Part shown: positions 5,123 to 27,309 of the stretch, piece by piece
Layout of the letters: each line of letters starts with the position of its first letter
How positions within the stretch are numbered: position 1 is the stretch's first letter
Assembly (NCBI GenBank): GCA_025963935.1
Contig: JAOPZV010000299.1
Span: 1 to 52,487 of the forward strand
Direction: 5' to 3'
Length of the DNA: 52,487 nucleotides
DNA from: Solirubrobacterales bacterium
Lineage (GTDB): Bacteria; Actinomycetota; Thermoleophilia; Solirubrobacterales; Solirubrobacteraceae
The notes under the pieces: generated by a model
What the model was told of the DNA's origin: nothing
Databases searched by the model: none
The model's input: the letters and a program-made list of their open reading frames with translations, nothing else
Made by a program: the position numbers and the translations under genes

Positions 5123-5416
5123 ATGAAACTCAAGCCCCTGGGGGATCGCCTCATCGTGAAAGCGGTTGAGGAGGAGGAGACCACAGCGAGCGGCATCGTC
5201 TTGCCCGACACCGCCAAAGAGAAGCCGCAGAAGGGCAAGGTCCTCGCCGTCGGCGACGGCAGGATCGAGGACGGCAAACGCGTTCCGCTGGACGTGAGCG
5301 AGGGCGACGAGGTCCTCTACAGCAAATACGGCGGGACCGAGATTATTGATCCTGACAACGGGGAGGACCTGCTCGTGTTGCGCGAGTCCGATGTCCTGGC
5401 CCGCGTCGAGGCTTAA
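5123..5416 (+). CDS. groES: co-chaperonin GroES
   Basis: [12 protein letters not shown]...[18 protein letters not shown]; GGAGG RBS upstream. Confidence 0.98.
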
Positions 5417-5431
5417 GGAGACCAGCAAGAA

Positions 5432-7078
5432 ATGGCACACAAGGAGCTCAAGTACAACGCAGAGGCGCGCAAAGCGCTCGAGGCCGGCGTCGACGCGGTG
5501 GCAAACGCCGTCAAGGTCACGCTCGGGCCGAAGGGCCGTTATGTCGTGCTCGACAAGAAATTCGGCGCGCCCACGATCACCAACGACGGCGTGACGATCG
5601 CCCGTGAGATCGAGGTCGAGGACGTGTTCGAGAACCAGGGCGCGCAGCTCGTCCGTGAGGTCGCGACGGCCACGAACGACGTCGCGGGCGACGGCACCAC
5701 CACGGCGACCGTGCTGGCGCAGGCAATCGTGCGTCAGGGCCTGAAGAACGTCGCCGCCGGGGCAAACCCGCTGGCGCTCAAACGCGGCATCGAGAAATCA
5801 GTCGACCAGGTGGTCGCCAACATCGCCTCGCAGGCCAAGGAGGTCTCCGGCAAGGACCAGATCGCTCGCGTCGCGACGATCTCAGCCGGCGACGAGGAGA
5901 TCGGCGATGTGATCGCCGACGCGATCGACAAGGTCGGCAAGGATGGCGTGGTGAACGTGGAGGAGGGCCAGACGTTCGGCATGGATCTCGAATTCACCGA
6001 GGGCATGCAGTTCGACAAGGGCTACATCTCGCCGTACATGGTCACCGACCAGGACCGCATGGAGGCGGTGCTCGAGGACCCGTACATCCTGATCGCCAAC
6101 CAGAAGATCGGCTCGGTGCGCGACATCCTGCCGGTCCTCGAGCAGGTGATCCAGAGCGGTAAGCCTCTGCTGATCATCGCCGAGGACGTCGAAGGCGAGT
6201 CGCTCGCGACGCTCGTCGTGAACAAGCTTCGCGGCACGTTCACAGGCGTGGCAGTCAAGGCTCCGGGCTTCGGCGACCGCCGCAAGCGCATGCTCGAGGA
6301 CATCGCCATCCTCGCCGGCGGTGAAGTGATCACCGAGGAGCTCGGCCTGAAGCTGGAGAACACGAAACTCGACCAGCTCGGACGGGCGCGGCGTGTGGTG
6401 GTCACGAAAGACACGACCACGATCGTCGACGGCTCAGGTGACCCGGAGGCGATCAAAGGCCGCATCAACCAGATCAAAGCCGAAATCGAGAACACCGACT
6501 CGGACTTCGACCGCGAGAAGCTCCAGGAACGACTGGCCAAGCTCTCCGGCGGAGTAGCTGTCGTGAAGGTCGGGGCGGCTACCGAGACGGAGATGAAGGA
6601 GAAGAAGCACCGCGTCGAGGACGCGCTGCAGGCCACGCGGGCCGCACTCGAGGAGGGCATCGTGCCCGGCGGCGGCGTCGCGCTGCTGCAGGCCTCGGCG
6701 GCTGTCACGATCGACGCCGACGGCGCCTCCACGGACGGGTCCGATGATGAGCGCACGGGTGCTCGCATCGTGCTGCGCGCGCTCGAGGAGCCACTACGCC
6801 AGCTGGCAGAGAATGCCGGGCTGGAGGGTTCCGTCGTGGTCAACGAAGTCCGCAACGCCAAACCGGGTTACGGCCTGAACGCGGCGACCAACCAGATAGT
6901 CGATCTCGTGGCCGAGGGCATCATCGACCCGGCCATGGTCACCCGCTCGGCGCTGCAGAACGCGGCCTCGATCGCCAAGAACATCCTCACCACCGAGGCG
7001 ATCGTCGCCGAAGTTCCGGAGAAGGATGGCGGCGGTGGCGGTGGCGGCGGCATGCCCGACATGAGCGGAATGATGTAG
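5432..7078 (+). CDS. groEL: chaperonin GroEL
   Basis: [19 protein letters not shown] and [10 protein letters not shown] motifs; Gly/Met-rich tail. Confidence 0.99.
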
Positions 7079-10803: not shown

Positions 10804-11070
10804 ATGGCCTACGTAATCGCCGAGCCGTGCATCGGCACCAAGGACAACTCCTGTGTCGAGGTATGCCCCGTGGACTGCATCCACCCGACGCCCGACGAGC
10901 CCGGCTACGACGAGGCCGAGATGCTCTACATCGATCCGGAGGAGTGCATCGACTGCGATGCCTGTGTCGAGGCCTGCCCGGTGGATGCGTGCTTCGCGGA
11001 GGACCAGCTCCCTGAGGAGTGGCAGAAGTACTCGCAGATCAACGTCGAGTACTTCGCCAAAAGCCACTAG
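10804..11070 (+). CDS. fdxA: 7Fe ([3Fe-4S][4Fe-4S]) ferredoxin, FdxA type
   Basis: MAYVIAEPCIGTKDNSCVEVCPVDCIH...CIDCDACVEACPVDA. Confidence 0.92.
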   Translation: MAYVIAEPCIGTKDNSCVEVCPVDCIHPTPDEPGYDEAEMLYIDPEECIDCDACVEACPVDACFAEDQLPEEWQKYSQINVEYFAKSH

Positions 11071-12158
11071 GGGGCGGCGGCGCTGAGCATGTCGCGGTAA
11101 TCCGCTGCGAGAACGTCGAACACGGGCACGCCGGCGAGCGCCTCTGCCACGCGATCGCGAAGCTCGGTCGAGTCGAAGCGGTGTGAGCGGGGGGCTACCG
11201 GGTTGACCGTCAGCGCCCTCAGGTCAATCGACTCGACCGTCTGGATGTGAACCCCCTGGCTGGCGTACCATGCCGGGCCGCGGTCGGCGAGGAAGACCCG
11301 GGTGCTGTCGGCGACGACCACGACGACCTCGCGGTCGCGTCGCCGGGCGGCCTGCAGGAGGCCGCGTAGGAAGGAGTCCGGGAGCGCGCCCTCGGCCACG
11401 ACCCAGCCGGCGGCGGGGTTGTCGTCGAGCAGCTGGCCGATCTCCTCGGCGTCTGCTGTGAGCACAAAGCGCGGCGCGAGCTGGACGGGCCGTCCGTGCT
11501 CGTCGAGCAGCGCGCTGACACCGTCCTTGACGATCGCTTCGGCCGCGGCGAGCAGCGGGCCATGCTCGACCGCCGCGAGGCGCACGAGGTCGACGGCGTC
11601 AGCTGTTTGCGCGATCACCTCGCCGATGTCCTCGCTGAGCACCGCGCCGGTCGACATCACCAGACCGTCGGCGACGCTCGGGGACGAGGCGGCGCGCCGG
11701 TCGATCGCTCCATCGATCAGCACCTGCTCGGCGCCGTGCTCCAGCATCGCGTCGCTCACCGCGCGCACATCGGCCGCCGCGCTCGGACCCGCGACCTCGA
11801 TCGCGCCGCCCTGGCGCATCCGCGCGATGACCACCGTGCCGAGTGGTGTGCGGACGCTCGTGCGCTCGAGCACGTCGTGCTGGAGCGCGCTGGCGCGCAG
11901 CAGCTCGCCGGTGGTCGCGACGAGGCTCGCCGCAGGCAGGCGCACGCGCGGCTTCTCGATGCGAACGTCGATCACGTCGCGCTCCTCGCCGTCGCGTCCA
12001 ACCGACGTGACGCCGACCACCCGCCCCGCGGCCTCGAGCTCACGCAGCAGCGCCGCGAGAGCCTCGGTCTTGCCCGTGTTCTTTGCCAGCCCGACGAGCG
12101 CCAGTCTGCTGACCGAGACCGTCAGATCGGACAGCAGCAAGGAATCAGCCGGCCGCAA
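11067..12158 (-). CDS. kamB: KamB-like lysine 5,6-aminomutase reactivase subunit (P-loop protein)
   Basis: GLAKNTGKT P-loop, GVTSVGRDGE, EKPR and LIDGAIDRRA resemble KamB; overlaps the kamE stop. Confidence 0.75.
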   Translation of the reverse strand: MRPADSLLLSDLTVSVSRLALVGLAKNTGKTEALAALLRELEAAGRVVGVTSVGRDGEERDVIDVRIEKPRVRLPAASLVATTGELLRASALQHDVLERTSVRTPLGTVVIARMRQGGAIEVAGPSAAADVRAVSDAMLEHGAEQVLIDGAIDRRAASSPSVADGLVMSTGAVLSEDIGEVIAQTADAVDLVRLAAVEHGPLLAAAEAIVKDGVSALLDEHGRPVQLAPRFVLTADAEEIGQLLDDNPAAGWVVAEGALPDSFLRGLLQAARRRDREVVVVVADSTRVFLADRGPAWYASQGVHIQTVESIDLRALTVNPVAPRSHRFDSTELRDRVAEALAGVPVFDVLAADYRDMLSAAAP

Positions 12159-12900
12159 CGCGCGAGGCGAGCTCGCGCACGATGAACGTGGCCAGGTGAT
12201 GGGGGTAGGTGCCCTTCGAGAAGCCCGCGTCGTAGCCGAGCTCCTTCGCCAGCTCGTTTGACACCCGGGGGCCGCCGCACGCGAGGATCATCTCGCCGCG
12301 CCTGCCCTCCGCCTCGACCATCTCCACCAGCTCGGTCAGGTTGTGGACGTGCAGGTTCTGCTGTGTGACCGTCTGGGAGACGAGGATCGCGTCCGCGCCG
12401 ACCTCGATGGCCTTGGCTACAAGGACGCTGTTGGGAACCTGGCTGCCGAGGTTGTAGGTGCGGAAGGACCGGTAGCCCTCCAGGCCGTGATGGCCGTGAT
12501 AGCCCTTGAGGTTGAGCATCGCGTCGATTCCCACGCTGTGGGTGTCGGAGCCCGTGCTCGCTCCCACGACCACGATCGCCCGGCCGACCTGCTCCTCTGC
12601 GAAGCGCTCGATCTCCTCCTCGCTCATGTACTCGATGTCGAACCCGTCGCCCTGCAGCTCTGTGAAGTCGATGCTCTGCACGCAGCGCCCGTACATCACG
12701 AAATACGTGTAGCCGTCGGTCAGCTGCTGGTAGTGAACGACCTCCGGGTCCTCGAAACCCATCTTGCCGGCCAGCTCAAGCGCGGCCTTGCGCGCCGCAA
12801 GCGAATAGGGGACGGGCAGCGTGAAGCTGAGCTGCACCAGGCCGTCGTCGAGGTGGTCGGCATAGGGAACCACGGCCGTCAGATCGACGGACCTAGGCAT
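12145..12900 (-). CDS. kamE: lysine 5,6-aminomutase beta subunit (B12-binding, carries the PLP lysine)
   Basis: PYAD..DDG.VQLSFTLPVP dimerisation domain, DxHxxG (DTHSVG), NLKGYHGHHGLE with the PLP Lys, SQTVTQ. Confidence 0.93.
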   Translation of the reverse strand: MPRSVDLTAVVPYADHLDDGLVQLSFTLPVPYSLAARKAALELAGKMGFEDPEVVHYQQLTDGYTYFVMYGRCVQSIDFTELQGDGFDIEYMSEEEIERFAEEQVGRAIVVVGASTGSDTHSVGIDAMLNLKGYHGHHGLEGYRSFRTYNLGSQVPNSVLVAKAIEVGADAILVSQTVTQQNLHVHNLTELVEMVEAEGRRGEMILACGGPRVSNELAKELGYDAGFSKGTYPHHLATFIVRELASRVAAG

Positions 12901-14455
12901 AGCTGACCTCGCGCATCAGCTCGACCACAGGGTTGAAGTAGCCCTCCTCCACGGTCACGATCCCCTCGATGCCGCGCCCGGCGTCGACGCTCCGGCTGAC
13001 ATCGCCGAACGTCGCCTGCTCGATCGCCCTGAACAGCCCGGTCTGCGCGATTCGCTCAAGCAGCACGTGCGCGCTTGCGAGAACCTCCTGAGCGCGCGTC
13101 TGGATGACCCCGCCTTGCTTGAACTCGATCTCCTCGCCGAGGTCGTGGGCGGCGTTGAAGACGTAGTCGACGTTCTGCAGGCCGAGCACGCGGTCGTGGA
13201 TGTGGGGCGTGAAGATGCCCTCCGTCGGCACGCCGATCGTCTGCAGACCCTGCCCGGTGGCGATCGTGACCAGGTTGAAGAGCGTGTCGCTCGCGTGCGT
13301 GCGGAACAGGTTCCCGTCCATGTGCCTCGTGGGCGGCATGTACTTGACCGGGCAGTCGGGGAACAGCTCCCGCGTGAGCTGGGCCTGGGCCCACTGGTAG
13401 AGCAGGCTGTTGCGGACCGGCACGTCGATCTCGAAAGCGTCGCCCAGTGCGATCTGGGAGTCCGGCACGCCAGACTCGTGCGCGAGTTGGTGGTTGATGA
13501 ACTGAGAGGCCGTGACCGACGGCGCCGCCTCGATCGCGTCGGCGGTGCGCAGGTAGTTGTCCTCGCCGGTGTTGATCACCACGCCGAAGTAGCCGTTGAT
13601 CATGCGCGAGACCCGCTGGTCGATCAGGCCGCGCACGATGTTGATGTCGCGATAGAGGATGCCGTAGAGCGCGTCGTTGACCATGTTGTCGAATCCCTCC
13701 CATGCGCCCATCGAGGCGATCTCCGACATACACAGACCCGAGCAGAAGCTCGACAGCCGCACGTATCTCCCGTGCTGCTCGGACCACTCGTCCATCGCCT
13801 CGCGCATGATCCGGAAGTTCGCCTGCGTTGCGAACGTCCCGCCGTAGCCCTCGGTGGTCGGGCCATATGGCACGTAGTCGAGCAGGCTCTGGGCGGTCGA
13901 GCGGATCACGGCCACGATGTCTCCGCCCGCCTCCGCGACCGCCTTGGCGTGGACCACATCCTCATACACATCGCCGGTCGCCGTCAGGACGTAGCGCAGC
14001 GGAGCCGGGCTGTCTCCCAGCCGCTCGCGCATCGCGCGGCGCTCCTCGAAACGACCAGAGATGTCCTTCAACCGCGCCGCACACTCCTCCATGACACGTG
14101 TGTGGATGGCACGTTCCTCGGCGAGATCCAGCTCGGTCAACACGAGCTCGCCCGCGCTCACCGACTCGGCGATCTGCTGCGGTGTGCGGCCCGTCTGAAG
14201 CATCGCGTTGCCAATCCAGTAGGCGACGCCGCGGCCGAGGCCGCCGCGGTCGTGGACGTGGTCGACGAGCACGTTCGGCAAGGGAACGTCAAGACTGTCC
14301 GCGCCGTCCACCCCGAGCAGCCTCGTCACGCTGCGCTCGACGGACACCGTCGTGCGGCCGGCGACCTGCTCGCTGACCTGCTCGGCGATCTGTCGGGCTG
14401 CCTGGCGACAGGCGCTCACCACGCCGGGATCGAGGCCCAGCTTCGAGTTGCTCAT
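12893..14455 (-). CDS. kamD: lysine 5,6-aminomutase alpha subunit (PLP TIM barrel)
   Basis: TTVSVERSVTRLLGVDG, VIRSTAQSLLDYVPYG, CSGLCM, NDALYGIL, INTGEDNYL and KYMPPT motifs. Confidence 0.95.
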   Translation of the reverse strand: MSNSKLGLDPGVVSACRQAARQIAEQVSEQVAGRTTVSVERSVTRLLGVDGADSLDVPLPNVLVDHVHDRGGLGRGVAYWIGNAMLQTGRTPQQIAESVSAGELVLTELDLAEERAIHTRVMEECAARLKDISGRFEERRAMRERLGDSPAPLRYVLTATGDVYEDVVHAKAVAEAGGDIVAVIRSTAQSLLDYVPYGPTTEGYGGTFATQANFRIMREAMDEWSEQHGRYVRLSSFCSGLCMSEIASMGAWEGFDNMVNDALYGILYRDINIVRGLIDQRVSRMINGYFGVVINTGEDNYLRTADAIEAAPSVTASQFINHQLAHESGVPDSQIALGDAFEIDVPVRNSLLYQWAQAQLTRELFPDCPVKYMPPTRHMDGNLFRTHASDTLFNLVTIATGQGLQTIGVPTEGIFTPHIHDRVLGLQNVDYVFNAAHDLGEEIEFKQGGVIQTRAQEVLASAHVLLERIAQTGLFRAIEQATFGDVSRSVDAGRGIEGIVTVEEGYFNPVVELMREVSYA

Positions 14456-15990
14456 CGCAGCTCTCTGACAATCGGGAACGGGATCACCTCGCGCAGGGTG
14501 TCGCGTTCGGTGAGGATCATGACCAGGCGGTCGACGCCCATCCCCCCGCCGGCGGTCGGCGAGTAGCCGTACTCCAGAGCCCGCGCGTACTCCTCGTCAT
14601 TGGGATGCGGCACGTCGCCGTCGTCCACCGCCCGGCGCTTGCGCTGCTCGACGAACCGCTGCCACTCGTCGACCGGGTCGTTCAGCTCGGTGTCGCCGCT
14701 GACCAGCTCGATGCCGCCGATCACGGCATCGAAGTGCTCGGCCAGCTCGGGATGCTTGGAGTGGCGCTTGGTGATCGGGAAGGGCTCGAGCGGGAAGTCG
14801 AACACGTGGGTGGGCTGGTTGATCGTGCTCTCGATTTTCTCGGAGTAGATGTCGGCGACGACCTCAGCCCAGGTGGCGGCCGGATCCATCGGCCCATCGA
14901 GCAGCTCCGCGAGCTGCTCGCGTGTGGACTCCATGAAGTCGACACCGAACCGCTCCAGGATCAGCTCGCGCATCGTCACCCGCCGCCACGGCTTCGCGAG
15001 GTCGATCTCCTCGCCGCCCCGCATGATGACCGTGCGCCCCAGCGCCTTCTGGGCCACGTCGCGGAACATTTCTTCGGTCACCGTCGCGACGTCGTTGTAG
15101 TCCGAGTAGGCGCACATGAACTCGATGATCGTGAACTCGGGTGAGTGCTTTGGGGAGATCCCCTCGTTGCGGAACACCTTGCCCATGTCGTAGACGTTCT
15201 CCATGCCGCCCACGATGCAGCGGTTGAGGAACAGCTCGACGGAGATGCGCAGATACAGATCGCGGTCCAGGGCGTTGTGGTGCGTGGTGAAGGGCCTGGA
15301 CCCGGCGCCGCCCGCCAGCGACTGCAGGGCGGGGGTTTCGATCTCCACGAAGTTCCGCTCGGCCAGCCATTCGCGGATCGCGAGGACGATCTTGTTCCGC
15401 GTGATGAACAGCTCGCGCGTCTCCTCGTTGGCGAGCAGGTCGAGCTCGCGGTAGCGATAGCGCGTACCCGTGTCGCCCAGGCCGTGGTGCTTGTCCGGGG
15501 GCGGGCGGAGCGTCTTGGTGAGCAGCGTGCACTCGACCACCGCGAGCGCGAGCTGGCCCCGCTGGGTGACGTACACGCTGCCGAGGACCCCCACTATGTC
15601 GCCGATATCGAGGTTGAGGATGCGGTTGAAGGCCTCTTCGCCGAGGGAATCGAACCGCACCACGACCTGGATCTGGCCGGACAGGTCTCGCACGTCGAGG
15701 AAGGCGGTCTTGCCGTGGACGCGTCGTGAGATCAGCCGGCCGGCGATCTGGTGGCGCAGATCCGGGTGCTCGCCCTGCTCGAGCTTCGTCGGGTCGTGGG
15801 CCGCGACCAGGTCAGCGATCCGCGTGCGGGTGTTCCACAGGCTGACCGGTGGGTAGGGGTCTATCCCTTCTGCCCGCAGCCTCTCCATCTTCGCGCGCCG
15901 TTCATCGAATTCGACGACGCCGTCGCCGCCGGCATGACCGGTGTCGGACCGGTCGTCCTGCTCCTCCTCCTGCTGGTTCTTTACTGGCAT
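14452..15990 (-). CDS. lysS: class II lysyl-tRNA synthetase-like protein (full length, divergent amino-acid pocket)
   Basis: OB-fold anticodon domain (GRLISRRVHGKTAFLDVRDLSGQIQV), motif 1 (FVEIETP), motif 2 (FRNEGISPKHSPEF), motif 3 (GMGVDRLVMIL). 4-nt ATGA overlap with kamD. Confidence 0.9.
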   Translation of the reverse strand: MPVKNQQEEEQDDRSDTGHAGGDGVVEFDERRAKMERLRAEGIDPYPPVSLWNTRTRIADLVAAHDPTKLEQGEHPDLRHQIAGRLISRRVHGKTAFLDVRDLSGQIQVVVRFDSLGEEAFNRILNLDIGDIVGVLGSVYVTQRGQLALAVVECTLLTKTLRPPPDKHHGLGDTGTRYRYRELDLLANEETRELFITRNKIVLAIREWLAERNFVEIETPALQSLAGGAGSRPFTTHHNALDRDLYLRISVELFLNRCIVGGMENVYDMGKVFRNEGISPKHSPEFTIIEFMCAYSDYNDVATVTEEMFRDVAQKALGRTVIMRGGEEIDLAKPWRRVTMRELILERFGVDFMESTREQLAELLDGPMDPAATWAEVVADIYSEKIESTINQPTHVFDFPLEPFPITKRHSKHPELAEHFDAVIGGIELVSGDTELNDPVDEWQRFVEQRKRRAVDDGDVPHPNDEEYARALEYGYSPTAGGGMGVDRLVMILTERDTLREVIPFPIVRELR

Positions 15991-16155: not shown

Positions 16156-17316
16156 TCAGGCCATCGGCAGCGACATGCCCACGGGTTTCGGGCTGCCCTG
16201 CGGCTCGGCGGCTGCAGTTCCCGCCACCTCGACCAGCGGGAGGACCGGTAGCGCGACCGGTGACATCGCTATCAGCCCGCGCGCGATCTGATGGATCGCC
16301 TGGGCGGCTGGATCGTCCGGATCCTCGATCACCAGGGGGACGCCGTCGTCGGACTGGGCACGCAGCGGCATCGTCAACGGAACCCGCCCGAGCAGCGGAA
16401 CGTCGAGCTCCTCGGCGAGCTCGTTACCGCCACCCTCGCCAAAGATCGCGAAGCGCTCGCCCGACGGCGTCGTGAAGCTCGACATGTTCTCGATCACGCC
16501 GCTGATCTCCAGCGACACCTTGTGGGCCATGTGGGCCGCTCGTCGCGCCACTTTCTGGGCGGCCTGCTGTGGCGTGGTGACGATCAGGAACTGCGCCTGC
16601 GGCAGCAGCTGCGCGAGCGTCATCGAGACGTCGCCCGTCCCCGGTGGGAGGTCGACGAGCAGGTAGTCCAGCGCTCCCCATTCCACGTCCTGCAGGAACT
16701 GGGTGAGCGCCTTGTGCAGCATCGGTCCGCGCCACACGACGGCCGCGTCCTCCTCGACGAAGAAGCCGATCGACATCACCTTCACGCCGTGCGCCTCGAG
16801 CGGGATGATCTTTCGCTGCGGCGAGACCGGCGGACGCGTCGAGCCCAGCCCGTACATACGCGGGATCGAGTAGCCCCACACGTCCGCGTCGAGCACTCCC
16901 ACCCGCTTGCCCTCACCCATCAGCGCCGCAGCCAGGTTCGCCGTCAACGTCGACTTGCCGACGCCGCCCTTGCCCGAGCCGATGCACAGCACGTTGGAGA
17001 CCTGCGCGAGGGCGCCGGCCGGCAGGCTCGCGCGACCGAGCTTCTGTTGCAGTGCCGCCTTCTGGCCGTCGTCGAGCACGTCGAAGTAGACGTTCACGTG
17101 CGTCACGCCCTCGAGCGCCGAGACCGCCCCCGCGACGGCGCTCTGGAAGTGCCCCTTGATCGGGCACCCGGGCGTTGTGAGCGACACGGTGATGTCCACG
17201 ACGCCATTCGCACCGGCCTCGATCGAGCGCACCATGTCGAGCTCGACGATCGAGCGATGGAGCTCGGGGTCGATGACCACCTCGAGCGCTCTGCGGATCT
17301 CGTTGTTGTCGATCAC
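16156..17316 (-). CDS. mrp: Mrp/ApbC (NBP35) Fe-S cluster carrier ATPase
   Basis: N-terminal DUF59 (VIDPELHRSIVELDMV...TTPGCP), GSGKGGVGKST, VVWRGPM, DLPPGTGD and ENMS. GTG start 17316. Confidence 0.95.
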   Translation of the reverse strand: MIDNNEIRRALEVVIDPELHRSIVELDMVRSIEAGANGVVDITVSLTTPGCPIKGHFQSAVAGAVSALEGVTHVNVYFDVLDDGQKAALQQKLGRASLPAGALAQVSNVLCIGSGKGGVGKSTLTANLAAALMGEGKRVGVLDADVWGYSIPRMYGLGSTRPPVSPQRKIIPLEAHGVKVMSIGFFVEEDAAVVWRGPMLHKALTQFLQDVEWGALDYLLVDLPPGTGDVSMTLAQLLPQAQFLIVTTPQQAAQKVARRAAHMAHKVSLEISGVIENMSSFTTPSGERFAIFGEGGGNELAEELDVPLLGRVPLTMPLRAQSDDGVPLVIEDPDDPAAQAIHQIARGLIAMSPVALPVLPLVEVAGTAAAEPQGSPKPVGMSLPMA

Positions 17317-17524: not shown

Positions 17525-18085
17525 TCAGACGAGGCTGAGGACGCGCTCCTGAACGCGGTTGGCGAGCTCAGAGCCGTTCTTGGCAACCACGTCGCGACGC
17601 GACTCGACTGTCTTCTCGAGCTCGCGACGGCGCTGGCGCAGTTCGCGCTCGACCCGAACACGGGCTTTGCGAACCTCGCGCTCGAGCCTGTTGCGGGCTG
17701 TGATGCCACGGCGCTCGAAGCGGCGCAGCTGAGCCTGCGCTTTGGCGGCGGAGGAATAGCTCGAGATCGTGTCGCTGACCGTCGAGACGACGCGGTCGCG
17801 GGCGATCAGGGCCGCACCGACGGGGATGAGGACGGCGCGCTCGGCGTAGTCACCGACGACCTCCGCCGTGTCACGGGTCGCGGTCTGCGTCTGGCGCAGG
17901 GCGGCCTCCGTCTGGTGGGTTGCGCGGGTGCGAGCGGCCTTCGCCCGGGTCGCTTTCGACTGCGTGGTGCCGCGCGTCGTCGAGCGGCTGCGGCGCGCGC
18001 TGGATGCTTTGCTCGACGCCGGTTTGCGTGCAGCTTTTGCGCGCGCTTTGGGTCGGCTTGCTGGGGTGGTGGGGGAAGTTGGCAT
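17525..18085 (-). CDS. basic coiled-coil protein, phasin/HBHA-like
   Basis: Ala/Arg/Lys/Ser-rich N-terminus, a short hydrophobic AVLIPVGAALIA segment, then a charged helix. RBS GGAG. Confidence 0.7.
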   Translation of the reverse strand: MPTSPTTPASRPKARAKAARKPASSKASSARRSRSTTRGTTQSKATRAKAARTRATHQTEAALRQTQTATRDTAEVVGDYAERAVLIPVGAALIARDRVVSTVSDTISSYSSAAKAQAQLRRFERRGITARNRLEREVRKARVRVERELRQRRRELEKTVESRRDVVAKNGSELANRVQERVLSLV

Positions 18086-25182: not shown

Positions 25183-27309
25183 ATGCATCGTCTTGTCGCT
25201 TGTAGGAGTCGACGGTCCGTATCTTCGGCCGGGGCCTCGAATGCACGCATCTTCATCGTGCTGGCAGTCGCCTGCGTGGCGACTGCGCTCGGCGCTCCGG
25301 TGCAGGCACTGGGCGCCACGACGTTCCAGTTCGCCGCCAAGGCTGAGTACTCGACCGCCACCAAGCCCGTGTCGGTCGCGACGGGCGATCTCAACGGGGA
25401 CGGCAAGCGGGACCTGGTGGTCGCCAACGAAGAATCCAACAGCGTCTCCGTCCTGCTCGGAAACGGTGACGGGACGCTCAAACCCAAGGTTGACTACGCG
25501 GCGGGCACGGCGCCGGCATCGGTCGCGCTCGCCGACGTGAACGGCGACAAAAAGCCCGACCTCGTCATTTCCAACCGGGGTGCCGGCACGGTTTCGGTGC
25601 TCCTGGGCAAAGGCGACGGGACGTTCGAATCCGGCGTTGAATATGCGACCGGCGCCAAGCCCGTGTCGGTCGCGACAGGCGATCTCAACGGGGACGGCAA
25701 GCAGGACGTGGTGGTCGCCAACGAAGAATCCAACAGCGTCTCCGTCCTACTCGGCAAAGGCGACGGCACCTTCGAACCGAAGGTTGACTACGCGGCGGGC
25801 GCGGCGCCGGCATCGGTGGCGCTCGCCGACGTGAACGGCGACAAAAAGCCCGACCTCGTCGTTGCCAACCGGGGTGCCGGCACGGTTTCGGTGCTCCTGG
25901 GCAAAGGCGACGGGACGTTCGAATCCGGCGCTGAATATGCGACCGGCACCAAGCCTGCATCGGTCGCGACAGGCGATCTCAACGGCGACGGCAAGCAGGA
26001 CCTGGTGGTCGCCAACGAAGAATCCAACAGCGTCTCCGTCCTGCTCGGCAACGGCGACGGGACGTTCGCGTCCAAGCACGACTTCGCTACCGCCACAGCC
26101 CCGCGAGCCGTCGCGCTCGGGGACCTGAACGCGGACGGCAAGCAGGACATCGCCGTCGCGAACCTCGGTTCGAACAGCGCATCGATCCTGCTCGGCAAAG
26201 GGGACGGGAGCTTCACTTCCAAGCAGGACTTTCCCGCGGGCACGGCTCCCCAGGCGAGCGTGCTGGGCGATCTCAATGGTGACGGCAAACCGGACATCGC
26301 TACTGCGAACGCGACCGCTAACACCGTCTCTGTGCTGCTCAACAGCTCCGTGCCGGCACTTGAAGCAAGCCCGAGCCTGGTGTCTTTCCCGAGCCAGCTG
26401 TTCGCCACCAAGAGCGCGCCCCAGAAGGTAACGGTGACAAACACCGGCTCGGCGCCGCTGTCTATCAGCTCGGTGATCGTGACCGGTAACTTCGCGGCGT
26501 CCGGGTGCAGCGGGGCCTCGCTCTCGCCGGGCGCCAGCTGCTCGATCAGCGTCACCTTCTCCCCGAAGGGCTACGGAGCCCTGAAAGGCGAAGCGGCCAT
26601 CGCCACCAACGCAGGCTCCAAAGCGATCAAGCTGACCGGAACCGGCCTGCCGCCGGTTCCGCTGGTGGCCACCGGGGCGGTCGGTGAAATCGCCGGGACC
26701 TACGCGACACTGACAGGAACCGTCGTCTCCCAGGGGCCCGGGTCGTTCTACTTCGAGTACGGGGCCACAAAGTCCTATGGCTCCGTGACGCCAACATTGC
26801 CCCTCAGCTCGAGTGCGAATGCGCAGCAGCTCGCGGCAACGTTGTCCCTGCCGCCCGGAGCCAGTTACCACTACCGCATGGTCGCAAGTAACCTGGCCGC
26901 GACGATCAACGGGACCGATCAGGTGTTCACAATCCCGCCGGAGTCGCCGCTGCTCAAGCTGCTCAAGCACGGCCGTCTGTCCTCGGTGCTCCGGCACGGG
27001 TTACGGCTCCGTGTAAGCGGAACCTCGCCGGGCGTCATCACCGTGAAGTTACGAGTCGACGCCCAGACTGCTCGCGCCGCGCACCTCATTCCAGCGAGGA
27101 GCAAGCGCAAGACAAAAGTCACCGTGGGATCAATCCGTGTGACTGTGGCGGCGAATCGCTGGAAGACCGTGACCGTCAAGTTCGGCAAGGGCGCGAAGCA
27201 CAACCTCGCGGCGCTTGGCCGCGTCAAGCTGACGATCGTCGGGACACCATTGACGTTCACCGGCTCGGCGGGGAGTCCGACCAGCATCGCGGCAAGCATT
27301 CGCCGTTAG
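25183..27309 (+). CDS. secreted FG-GAP/VCBS beta-propeller protein with Ig-like (ASH-like and Fn3-like) domains
   Basis: Signal peptide, seven DxNxDxxxD repeats, VTVTNTGSAPLSI...C...LSPGASC.ISVTFSP, FEYG...YHYRMVASN, and a basic C-terminus. Confidence 0.85.
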   Translation: MHRLVACRSRRSVSSAGASNARIFIVLAVACVATALGAPVQALGATTFQFAAKAEYSTATKPVSVATGDLNGDGKRDLVVANEESNSVSVLLGNGDGTLKPKVDYAAGTAPASVALADVNGDKKPDLVISNRGAGTVSVLLGKGDGTFESGVEYATGAKPVSVATGDLNGDGKQDVVVANEESNSVSVLLGKGDGTFEPKVDYAAGAAPASVALADVNGDKKPDLVVANRGAGTVSVLLGKGDGTFESGAEYATGTKPASVATGDLNGDGKQDLVVANEESNSVSVLLGNGDGTFASKHDFATATAPRAVALGDLNADGKQDIAVANLGSNSASILLGKGDGSFTSKQDFPAGTAPQASVLGDLNGDGKPDIATANATANTVSVLLNSSVPALEASPSLVSFPSQLFATKSAPQKVTVTNTGSAPLSISSVIVTGNFAASGCSGASLSPGASCSISVTFSPKGYGALKGEAAIATNAGSKAIKLTGTGLPPVPLVATGAVGEIAGTYATLTGTVVSQGPGSFYFEYGATKSYGSVTPTLPLSSSANAQQLAATLSLPPGASYHYRMVASNLAATINGTDQVFTIPPESPLLKLLKHGRLSSVLRHGLRLRVSGTSPGVITVKLRVDAQTARAAHLIPARSKRKTKVTVGSIRVTVAANRWKTVTVKFGKGAKHNLAALGRVKLTIVGTPLTFTGSAGSPTSIAASIRR
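25345..26090 (+). repeat. intragenic tandem repeat, 300-bp period, about 2.5 copies
   Basis: GTGGTCGCCAACGAAGAATCCAACAGCGTCTCCGTCCT recurs near 25417, 25717 and 26005. The first two long units are almost identical at DNA level. Boundaries approximate. Confidence 0.85.

Follow-up and report, generated by a model that had tools for sequence, protein, structure and literature searches.

A lysyl-tRNA synthetase paralogue with a rebuilt pocket beside lysine 5,6-aminomutase, and unusual AAA codon behaviour in Solirubrobacterales

The window analysed here, a stretch of 52,487 nucleotides from a Solirubrobacterales bacterium, encodes a second, class II lysyl-tRNA synthetase (LysRS) whose side-chain pocket is rebuilt and whose gene shares an operon with aminomutase genes. 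In genomes that carry this paralogue the codon AAA is nearly absent from P-loop lysines. Judged from the genomes, the paralogue system is real and conserved, and probably part of a previously undescribed sense-codon expansion.

To our knowledge, selenocysteine and pyrrolysine are the only natural additions to the code, both on stop codons. If the reading proposed below is true, a natural non-standard amino acid would occupy a sense codon, with AAA split from AAG, in an abundant soil lineage, and the system would supply synthetase-tRNA-pathway modules for code engineering. Because 2,5-diaminohexanoate is isobaric with lysine, it would be invisible to mass-only proteomics; the mass shifts expected for the sister subtypes would be visible, and metaproteomes already available from soil or peat would allow a direct test of the idea. 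In the literature covered, namely titles and abstract openings with few subscription journals, we found no report of the paralogue family or of AAA reassignment in these bacteria.

A LysRS paralogue in an aminomutase operon

The features of the locus are as follows.

16156..17316, minus strand: mrp/ApbC Fe-S carrier, the usual upstream neighbour in the kam subtype
14452..15990, minus strand: LysRS paralogue (P0001), 512 aa, anticodon-binding and class IIb catalytic domains; its stop codon overlaps the kamD start
15553..15555, minus strand: Gln146 (LysU Glu134), anticodon domain
15160..15252, minus strand: LRISVELFLNRC (Glu252 kept; Ser250, Val251 and Asn256 changed) through motif 2, FRNEG
15115..15117, minus strand: Met292 (LysU Tyr280), codon ATG
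14779..14781, minus strand: Phe404 (LysU Ser397), aromatic in every main paralogue subtype
14686..14700, minus strand: Ser431-Gly432-Asp433-Thr-Glu435 (LysU Asn424, Phe426 and Glu428)
14527..14550, minus strand: motif 3, GGGMGVDR, with Gly483 (LysU Gly475, EpmA Ala298) and Arg488
12893..14455, minus strand: kamD, lysine 5,6-aminomutase alpha subunit; over the NF052384 cut-off, PDB 1xrs/8t0v match
12145..12900, minus strand: kamE, beta subunit; over the NF052385 cut-off, B12-binding DTHSVG and PLP lysine motif
11067..12158, minus strand: kamB, mutase reactivase subunit; over the NF052386 cut-off

The paralogue was aligned to E. coli LysU (from NC_000913.3), which serves as the reference for numbering. 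The residues named in a preliminary description of this DNA are present, including the ATG at 15115-15117, Ser431-Gly432-Asp433 at 14692-14700, FRNEG, EFTIIEFM and ELVSGDTELND, and the alignment places M292 at Y280, S431 at N424 and D433 at F426. The glutamates and the motif 2 and motif 3 arginines said to be kept are indeed kept (E252, E290 and E435 for E240, E278 and E428; R274 for R262; R488 for R480), as is G228 (G216). Further changes in the catalytic domain are S397 to F404, R412 to H419, E414 to D421, K244 to N256, N271 to S283 and L474 to G482. The anticodon domain retains the equivalents of Arg77, Phe84 and Gln95 and changes E134 to Q146. From LysU crystal papers we take Tyr280, Asn424, Phe426 and Glu428 to line the lysine site, and we take R262, R480, E240, E278 and E421 to contact ATP and the alpha-amino group. 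The paralogue has all of the latter set, as a class II LysRS does, and reads M, S, D and E at the side-chain positions where LysRS has Y280, N424, F/Y426 and E428.

M292, S431 and D433 were invariant in 121/121 proteins (the query and the best 120 of 6692 matches), as were all the catalytic arginines and glutamates. Housekeeping LysRS of related taxa might have carried the same substitutions, but 41/41 housekeeping LysS of the order keep Y/N/F-or-Y/E, and so do 73/76 other LysRS frames, the remaining three being incomplete. Because the changes are invariant in the paralogues while housekeeping LysS keep the canonical residues, the rebuilt pocket is due neither to chance nor to sequencing error. 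An AlphaFold model of the paralogue is a complete LysRS (pLDDT 92; TM 0.87-0.88 to LysU); an earlier model built from 15 sequences (pLDDT 55) was set aside. The protein scores over the lysS_bact profile cut-off, and its closest homologues are labelled Solirubrobacteraceae. It is 47% identical to the separate canonical LysS of the same genome, which lies in the usual greA-lysS-clpC setting.

The LysRS paralogue, kamD, kamE and kamB follow one another as overlapping genes and form one operon. KamD and KamE carry the PLP lysine and the DxHxxG motif of lysine 5,6-aminomutase; KamD retains R184, Y263, R268, D298 and N299 and has Y236 changed to F, with other local changes. KamC is absent from the operon, and no KamA (lysine 2,3-aminomutase) was found over cut-off in this genome (G000, 82.5% complete) or in five relatives (92-100% complete). 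Searches of the window or operon region for tRNAs, Rfam families and sigma-70 promoters found none. The mrp/ApbC gene is probably outside the mechanism.

Pocket type and neighbouring enzyme in the paralogue family

In a FastTree phylogeny of 83 sequences, the paralogues, which are found in Solirubrobacterales, grouped in a single clade with support 1.0, and Thermoleophilia LysS was its sister group. Within the genus, 47/48 genomes at least 90% complete had a match of at least 600 bits, above the housekeeping score range; the count includes the unpublished G340, and the 48th genome, G303, has the paralogue in pieces. A scan of genome contigs (1/64 parts) mostly returned housekeeping controls. 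Overall, carriers make up 2-3 independent lineages.

We surveyed the neighbours of 67 paralogue genes from 64 hand-picked stretches. Of 38 genes linked to kamDE(B), 37 were aligned and all 37 have M280/F397/S424/D426/E428, so that kam-linked homologues share M/S/D. The 13 genes linked to a Dab-type class III aminotransferase read L/F/S/D/E in 13/13, Asp426 there being retained with a shorter amine to reach. The 13 linked to a PrmC-like methyltransferase lack Asp426 and read F/W/G/G/D in 13/13, a larger and more aromatic pocket; this PrmC is a second copy in 3/3 carriers examined. The remaining three genes lie near a desaturase-like protein, a VioC/TauD-like hydroxylase or a methyltransferase. 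Some genomes have two kam-linked paralogues. KamD was found in 16/80 genomes, every one a paralogue carrier, and in 0/4 aminotransferase-type genomes. Pocket type therefore varies with the neighbouring enzyme (mutase, aminotransferase or second PrmC). The subtype groups are clades, and the pairing thus reflects a handful of events. The Gly475 equivalent is retained in all subtypes of the 67 genes; the accessible text of a preprint describes Gly at this position as the alpha-amino-acid state and Ala298 of EpmA as the beta-lysine gate (bioRxiv 10.64898/2026.07.07.736966).

With housekeeping LysS canonical and M/S/D present in every aligned kam-linked copy, the altered amino-acid specificity proposed in the preliminary description is well supported by sequence comparison. 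We infer the other half of that proposal, that the enzyme is active, and likewise its substrate, its tRNA partner and its causation of the AAA pattern described below.

Several divergent members of the family were also observed. One kam subtype (L057:806-4288, L165-L173, L176 and L185) is accompanied, in divergent orientation, by a degenerate ArgRS-like protein and a methyltransferase, and often by a DAP-decarboxylase-like enzyme. A divergent subtype in L186 and L188 (E280, SGS[ST]E) is flanked by a methyltransferase and a protein with an AlaX-like editing motif, and in L186 also by a VioC/TauD-like hydroxylase. P0143, P0159, P0161, P0165 and P0246 lie on long branches within the clade, and their anticodon or motif residues are degenerate. 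Outside the tree, the LysRS-like P0230, P0241, P0256 and P0267 have a different pocket variant, D424/W426.

Behaviour of AAA and GAA codons

P-loop lysine codons were surveyed in 80 chosen genomes; were tRNA(UUU) loaded with a variant by the paralogue, AAA would be expected to be scarce at catalytic lysines. In G000, genes were called with a purpose-built codon model, and the lysines of P-loop, PLP-type and KMSKS motifs were taken as catalytic. AAA encoded 0/65 strict P-loop lysines, 0/21 PLP-type and 0/8 KMSKS lysines, compared to 14% genome-wide; three looser AAA matches are not P-loops. Across the survey, AAA occurred at 4/1357 P-loops in 20 genomes of the genus, 1/704 in 14 carriers of another family and 0/51 in G063, and at 121/3034 in the 45 genomes where no paralogue is known (a single LysRS match in 43 of them, a second long-framed copy in two). 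Some of the five AAA matches in carriers look real. G278 has AAA at 0/85 P-loops, yet neither paralogue nor KamD was found in it (91% complete, 20 contigs). When expectation was set from each genome's own background, using one 20-kb lysS region per genome, 14 carriers had AAA at 0/738 P-loops (109 expected) and 21 non-carriers at 49/1315 (48 expected). By carrier group, the counts were 0/404 (73 expected), 0/88 (13.5) and 0/246 (22).

AAA also recurs at fixed sites. For rare-codon sites being shared between two genomes, Lys gave odds ratios of 28.8 (genus) and 11.1 (other family); six control amino acids gave 0.8-3.5, and Lys in non-carriers 0.5. Between the two carrier lineages AAA sites were not shared (odds ratio 1.2), which would be in line with a different variant in each. 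ClpC K465 is AAA in 9/9 genomes of the genus. In outgroups, the columns where carriers have AAA hold mostly lysine-like residues (K 55-74%, R 11-17%), in keeping with an anionic pocket. By crude hydropathy classes, AAA reached 30% in exported proteins of G000 versus 12% in cytoplasmic ones, with CAA unchanged, and 53% versus 19% in pooled kam-type stretches. No such exported bias was found in the other carrier family, nor in G063, where AAA usage is only 2%.

Low-GC gene transfer and codon context were rejected as causes: CAA and GAT are flat, and AAA occupies 28/196 GK[ST] sites that are not P-loops. A swap or synonymy of AAA and GAA was also ruled out, as the two codons do not exchange as synonyms. 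In G133 and G169, which have the paralogue and an ordinary tRNA-Glu, AAA occurs at 0/88 P-loops (13.5 expected) and the Lys odds ratio is 7.6. These two genomes retain the AAA signal and lose the GAA signal described below, indicating that AAA goes with the paralogue. AAA departs from the standard table in the statistical sense, and the genomic signal is strong. We consider it quite likely that AAA is not synonymous with AAG in carriers.

Other AAA sites were noted. In the window (5123-7078, plus strand; 17525-18085, minus strand), AAA makes up 5/9 lysine codons in GroES, 9/34 in GroEL and 7/10 in a Lys/Ala-rich protein upstream of mrp. Conserved AAA sites occur also in GreA, ClpC and FtsH. 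An exported repeat protein (25258-27309, plus strand) is an in-window case of the pattern, with GAA 14/17 and AAA 11/40.

GAA showed a parallel pattern with a different associate. A five-armed, 97-nt tRNA(UUC), which combines a lysine-type body with a hairpin in the D-loop and which ARAGORN annotated wrongly as Pro(ggg) or unknown, lies in G000 at C104:5623-5719 (minus strand), and the same type occurs in L042, L043, L045, L047, L049, L051, L058, L065, L321, L323 and L326. Its body pattern was present in 32/80 genomes (20/20 of the genus, 12/14 other carriers) and in 0/45 non-carriers apart from a shorter lysine-type variant in G009; this count rests on the body pattern, the hairpin itself being seen in 14 stretches. 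In 7/12 other-family genomes no more than 6 kb separate the tRNA from the paralogue. GAA reached 43% in exported proteins of G000 versus 11%, with CAA and GAT flat, and the shift was missing from non-carrier samples. At the ABC Walker-B Glu, GAA occurred in 5/787 cases in the 32 tRNA(UUC) genomes versus 67/1153. In 248 exported homologue pairs GAA aligned to GAA in 55% and to GAG in 2%; the Glu site-sharing odds ratios were 33.6 and 12.1, and GAA columns are Glu-like (E 52-61%). In G133 and G169 the GAA signal is gone (Glu odds ratio 1.9). The GAA split follows the five-armed tRNA(UUC), not the paralogue.

Neither a second GluRS nor a glutamate mutase was found, with one full-length GluRS in each of 5/5 genomes. 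Catalytic motifs inside GAA-rich proteins are too few to weigh. Gln134 was rejected as a UUC switch, since G200 and L065 have Glu134 with the tRNA and G133 and G169 have Gln134 without it. Ornithine carbamoyltransferase and Lgt were rejected as partners (a citrulline idea), as the argF-tRNA(Glu)-lgt locus is also present in the non-carriers G040 and G080. Exported proteins of the genus contain 3.4% Asp and 3.7% Arg, versus 6.2% and 7.5% in non-carriers, as though the residues encoded by GAA and AAA had taken their place.

Each genome has one tRNA(UUU), and no feature of it exclusive to carriers was found; a short variable loop was rejected as a mark because G005, G023 and G143 share it, and a relaxed ARAGORN scan gave noise. 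The anticodon residues of housekeeping LysS are alike in carriers and non-carriers. In G063 (L050:7458-10494), the genes for the paralogue and tRNA-Lys(UUU) are arranged head to head, in favour of a link between the two, and a desaturase-like protein related to amino-acid hydroxylases comes next. Three genomes without a known paralogue, G166, G009 and G019, have a tRNA(UUU) of the same type as carriers; in G166 and G009 the region sampled contains no AAA at all, which may represent a stage of codon capture. G000 has two tRNA-Lys(CUU) genes (C28:1-73 and C271:56-128), which are identical outside the T stem; one of them sits at the end of a contig.

Proposed mechanism, rival readings and known systems

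In the mechanism that we propose, KamDE would move the epsilon-amine of lysine to C5, and the paralogue would adenylate the product, which we predict to be 2,5-diaminohexanoate; Asp433 and Glu435 would hold the nearer amine, and Phe404 and Met292 the methyl branch. The variant would be transferred to the single tRNA(UUU). Catalytic lysines would be spared, and the variant would be used at other, fixed positions and, in this genus, in exported proteins. In sister lineages the same logic would give a Dab-like variant with the aminotransferase and N-methyl-lysine with the second PrmC. We give roughly even chances to the general form of this reading, in which the paralogue loads its partner enzyme's product on tRNA(UUU) so that AAA means a non-standard lysine variant and AAG means lysine. 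The preliminary description had suggested that the new Asp could bind the C5 amine of the mutase product; between the two diaminohexanoates it named, the 2,5- form is favoured over the 3,5- form, because G483 is the alpha-type state and no KamA was found in six genus genomes. That the variant is 2,5-diaminohexanoate itself is a tentative assignment, held with confidence well short of even. According to the accessible parts of the published reports, the characterised 5,6-aminomutase uses L-lysine ~1500-fold worse than D-lysine (kcat/Km 0.4 vs 630; PMC3958899, Table 1) and the known enzyme does turn over L-lysine (PMC3958899, PMC12429584). A D-product would be ill-suited to the ribosome and counts against the mutase-product model; the local KamD changes might alter the D-lysine preference. 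A real chemical obstacle to the proposed charging is lactam formation, which aminoacyl esters of Dab and of ornithine length undergo. LysS would have to be excluded from tRNA(UUU), and tRNA(UUU) from AAG, but no carrier-specific feature of either the tRNA or the LysS anticodon residues was found, and this also weighs against the model. So do G278, the real-looking AAA P-loops in carriers, the low AAA usage of G063 and its lack of exported bias, the small number of independent lineages, the use of a single 20-kb background region per genome and, in 7/12 other-family genomes, the presence of the UUC tRNA beside the paralogue.

Some of these difficulties vanish if AAA differs from AAG because its decoding is ambiguous or because the residue is modified once it is on the tRNA, with the paralogue loading lysine or a mixture and the partner acting on Lys-tRNA or making another product. 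This avoids the D-lysine and lactam problems, and LysS without a visible tRNA(UUU)-rejecting change and the few real-looking AAA P-loops in carriers both favour it. However, the loss of Tyr280, Asn424 and Phe426 argues against lysine loading, and the variation of the pocket alongside the partner enzyme suggests that it binds what the partner makes in free form; we consider this reading unlikely. It is also rather unlikely that the five-armed tRNA(UUC), and with it GAA, is the target of the paralogue, in place of AAA or in addition to it, the loaded amine then being turned into a glutamate-like residue while on the tRNA. The lysine-type body of that tRNA, its distribution with carriers, its place near the paralogue and the rarity and site sharing of GAA in tRNA(UUC) genomes are in line with it, but G133 and G169 have the paralogue with neither this tRNA nor the GAA signal, GAA columns are Glu-like whereas the paralogue pocket stays anionic, Gln134 does not track the tRNA, and AAA and GAA are not exchanged as synonyms.

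A role outside translation (in the cell wall, in lipid or in protein ligation like that of EpmA, MprF or Fem enzymes), with the codon patterns as separate lineage traits, is suggested by the resemblance of an aminomutase and a LysRS paralogue to EpmB and EpmA, by the few independent lineages and by G278, where no paralogue was detected. We regard it as improbable: the anticodon domain is intact, the gate Gly is alpha-type, the EpmA score is under cut-off, no LPG synthase (PF09924) was found in G000 (82.5% complete), no acceptor enzyme recurs across paralogue loci, and in two families the AAA pattern coincides exactly with the presence of the paralogue. Very improbable, in our assessment, is a function in scavenging, in lactam formation or as an Ap4A-type enzyme, or else in regulating lysine catabolism without catalysis. 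E414 to D and N271 to S lie near the ATP site and kamDE are catabolic genes elsewhere, both in its favour; against it, KamA was not found, the catalytic arginines and glutamates are all invariant, and the AAA data would be left unexplained. Building on the proposed loading of tRNA(UUU) with a partner's product, we tentatively suggest, with confidence somewhat below even, a 22-residue sense code, in which AAA would be a lineage-specific lysine variant added through swappable synthetase-enzyme cassettes, GAA a second, glutamate-like residue added through the five-armed tRNA, and both would rebuild the exported proteome.

Compared to class II LysRS (E. coli LysS/LysU), the paralogue has the two-domain fold, motifs 2 and 3 and the anticodon Arg/Phe/Gln, but has Y280, N424, F426, S397, E414, K244 and E134 replaced and is a second copy beside canonical LysS, paired with an amino-acid-modifying enzyme. 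The mutase resembles lysine fermentation kamDE of the C. sticklandii type in that KamD, KamE and KamB score over cut-offs with motifs kept; it differs in that KamA was not found, the operon has no KamC, Y236 is F and the genes are fused to a synthetase gene. The 512-aa protein has no fused LPG synthase domain, unlike LysX (an MprF-LysRS fusion). As in the bacterial sense-codon reassignments found by Codetta, one synonymous codon would gain another meaning, and from the accessible part of that report Codetta is unable to call such cases, so that the present one, if true, would be invisible to codon-inference tools (PMC8629427).

Two known systems pair a class II synthetase or its paralogue with a lysine-rebuilding enzyme. 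The pyrrolysine system consists of PylRS, tRNA-Pyl and PylBCD, with the UAG codon, a PheRS-like synthetase and a radical SAM mutase. It resembles the present locus in that a class II synthetase is co-encoded with lysine-rebuilding enzymes, including a mutase, for a non-standard residue, and the locus does have the dedicated synthetase co-encoded with a biosynthetic enzyme that is typical of code expansion. In contrast, the synthetase here is LysRS-derived, the codon would be a sense codon, the mutase is a B12/PLP enzyme, there are several interchangeable partners and the system is predicted from genomes. EpmA and EpmB, which carry out beta-lysylation of EF-P, share the combination of a LysRS paralogue with a lysine aminomutase. 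However, the present paralogue keeps its anticodon domain, has Gly483 rather than Ala at the A298 gate, is partnered by a 5,6- and not a 2,3-mutase, and scores 173.9 with the EpmA profile TIGR00462 (cut-off 286.9), while EpmA retains the Y/N/F that the paralogue loses.
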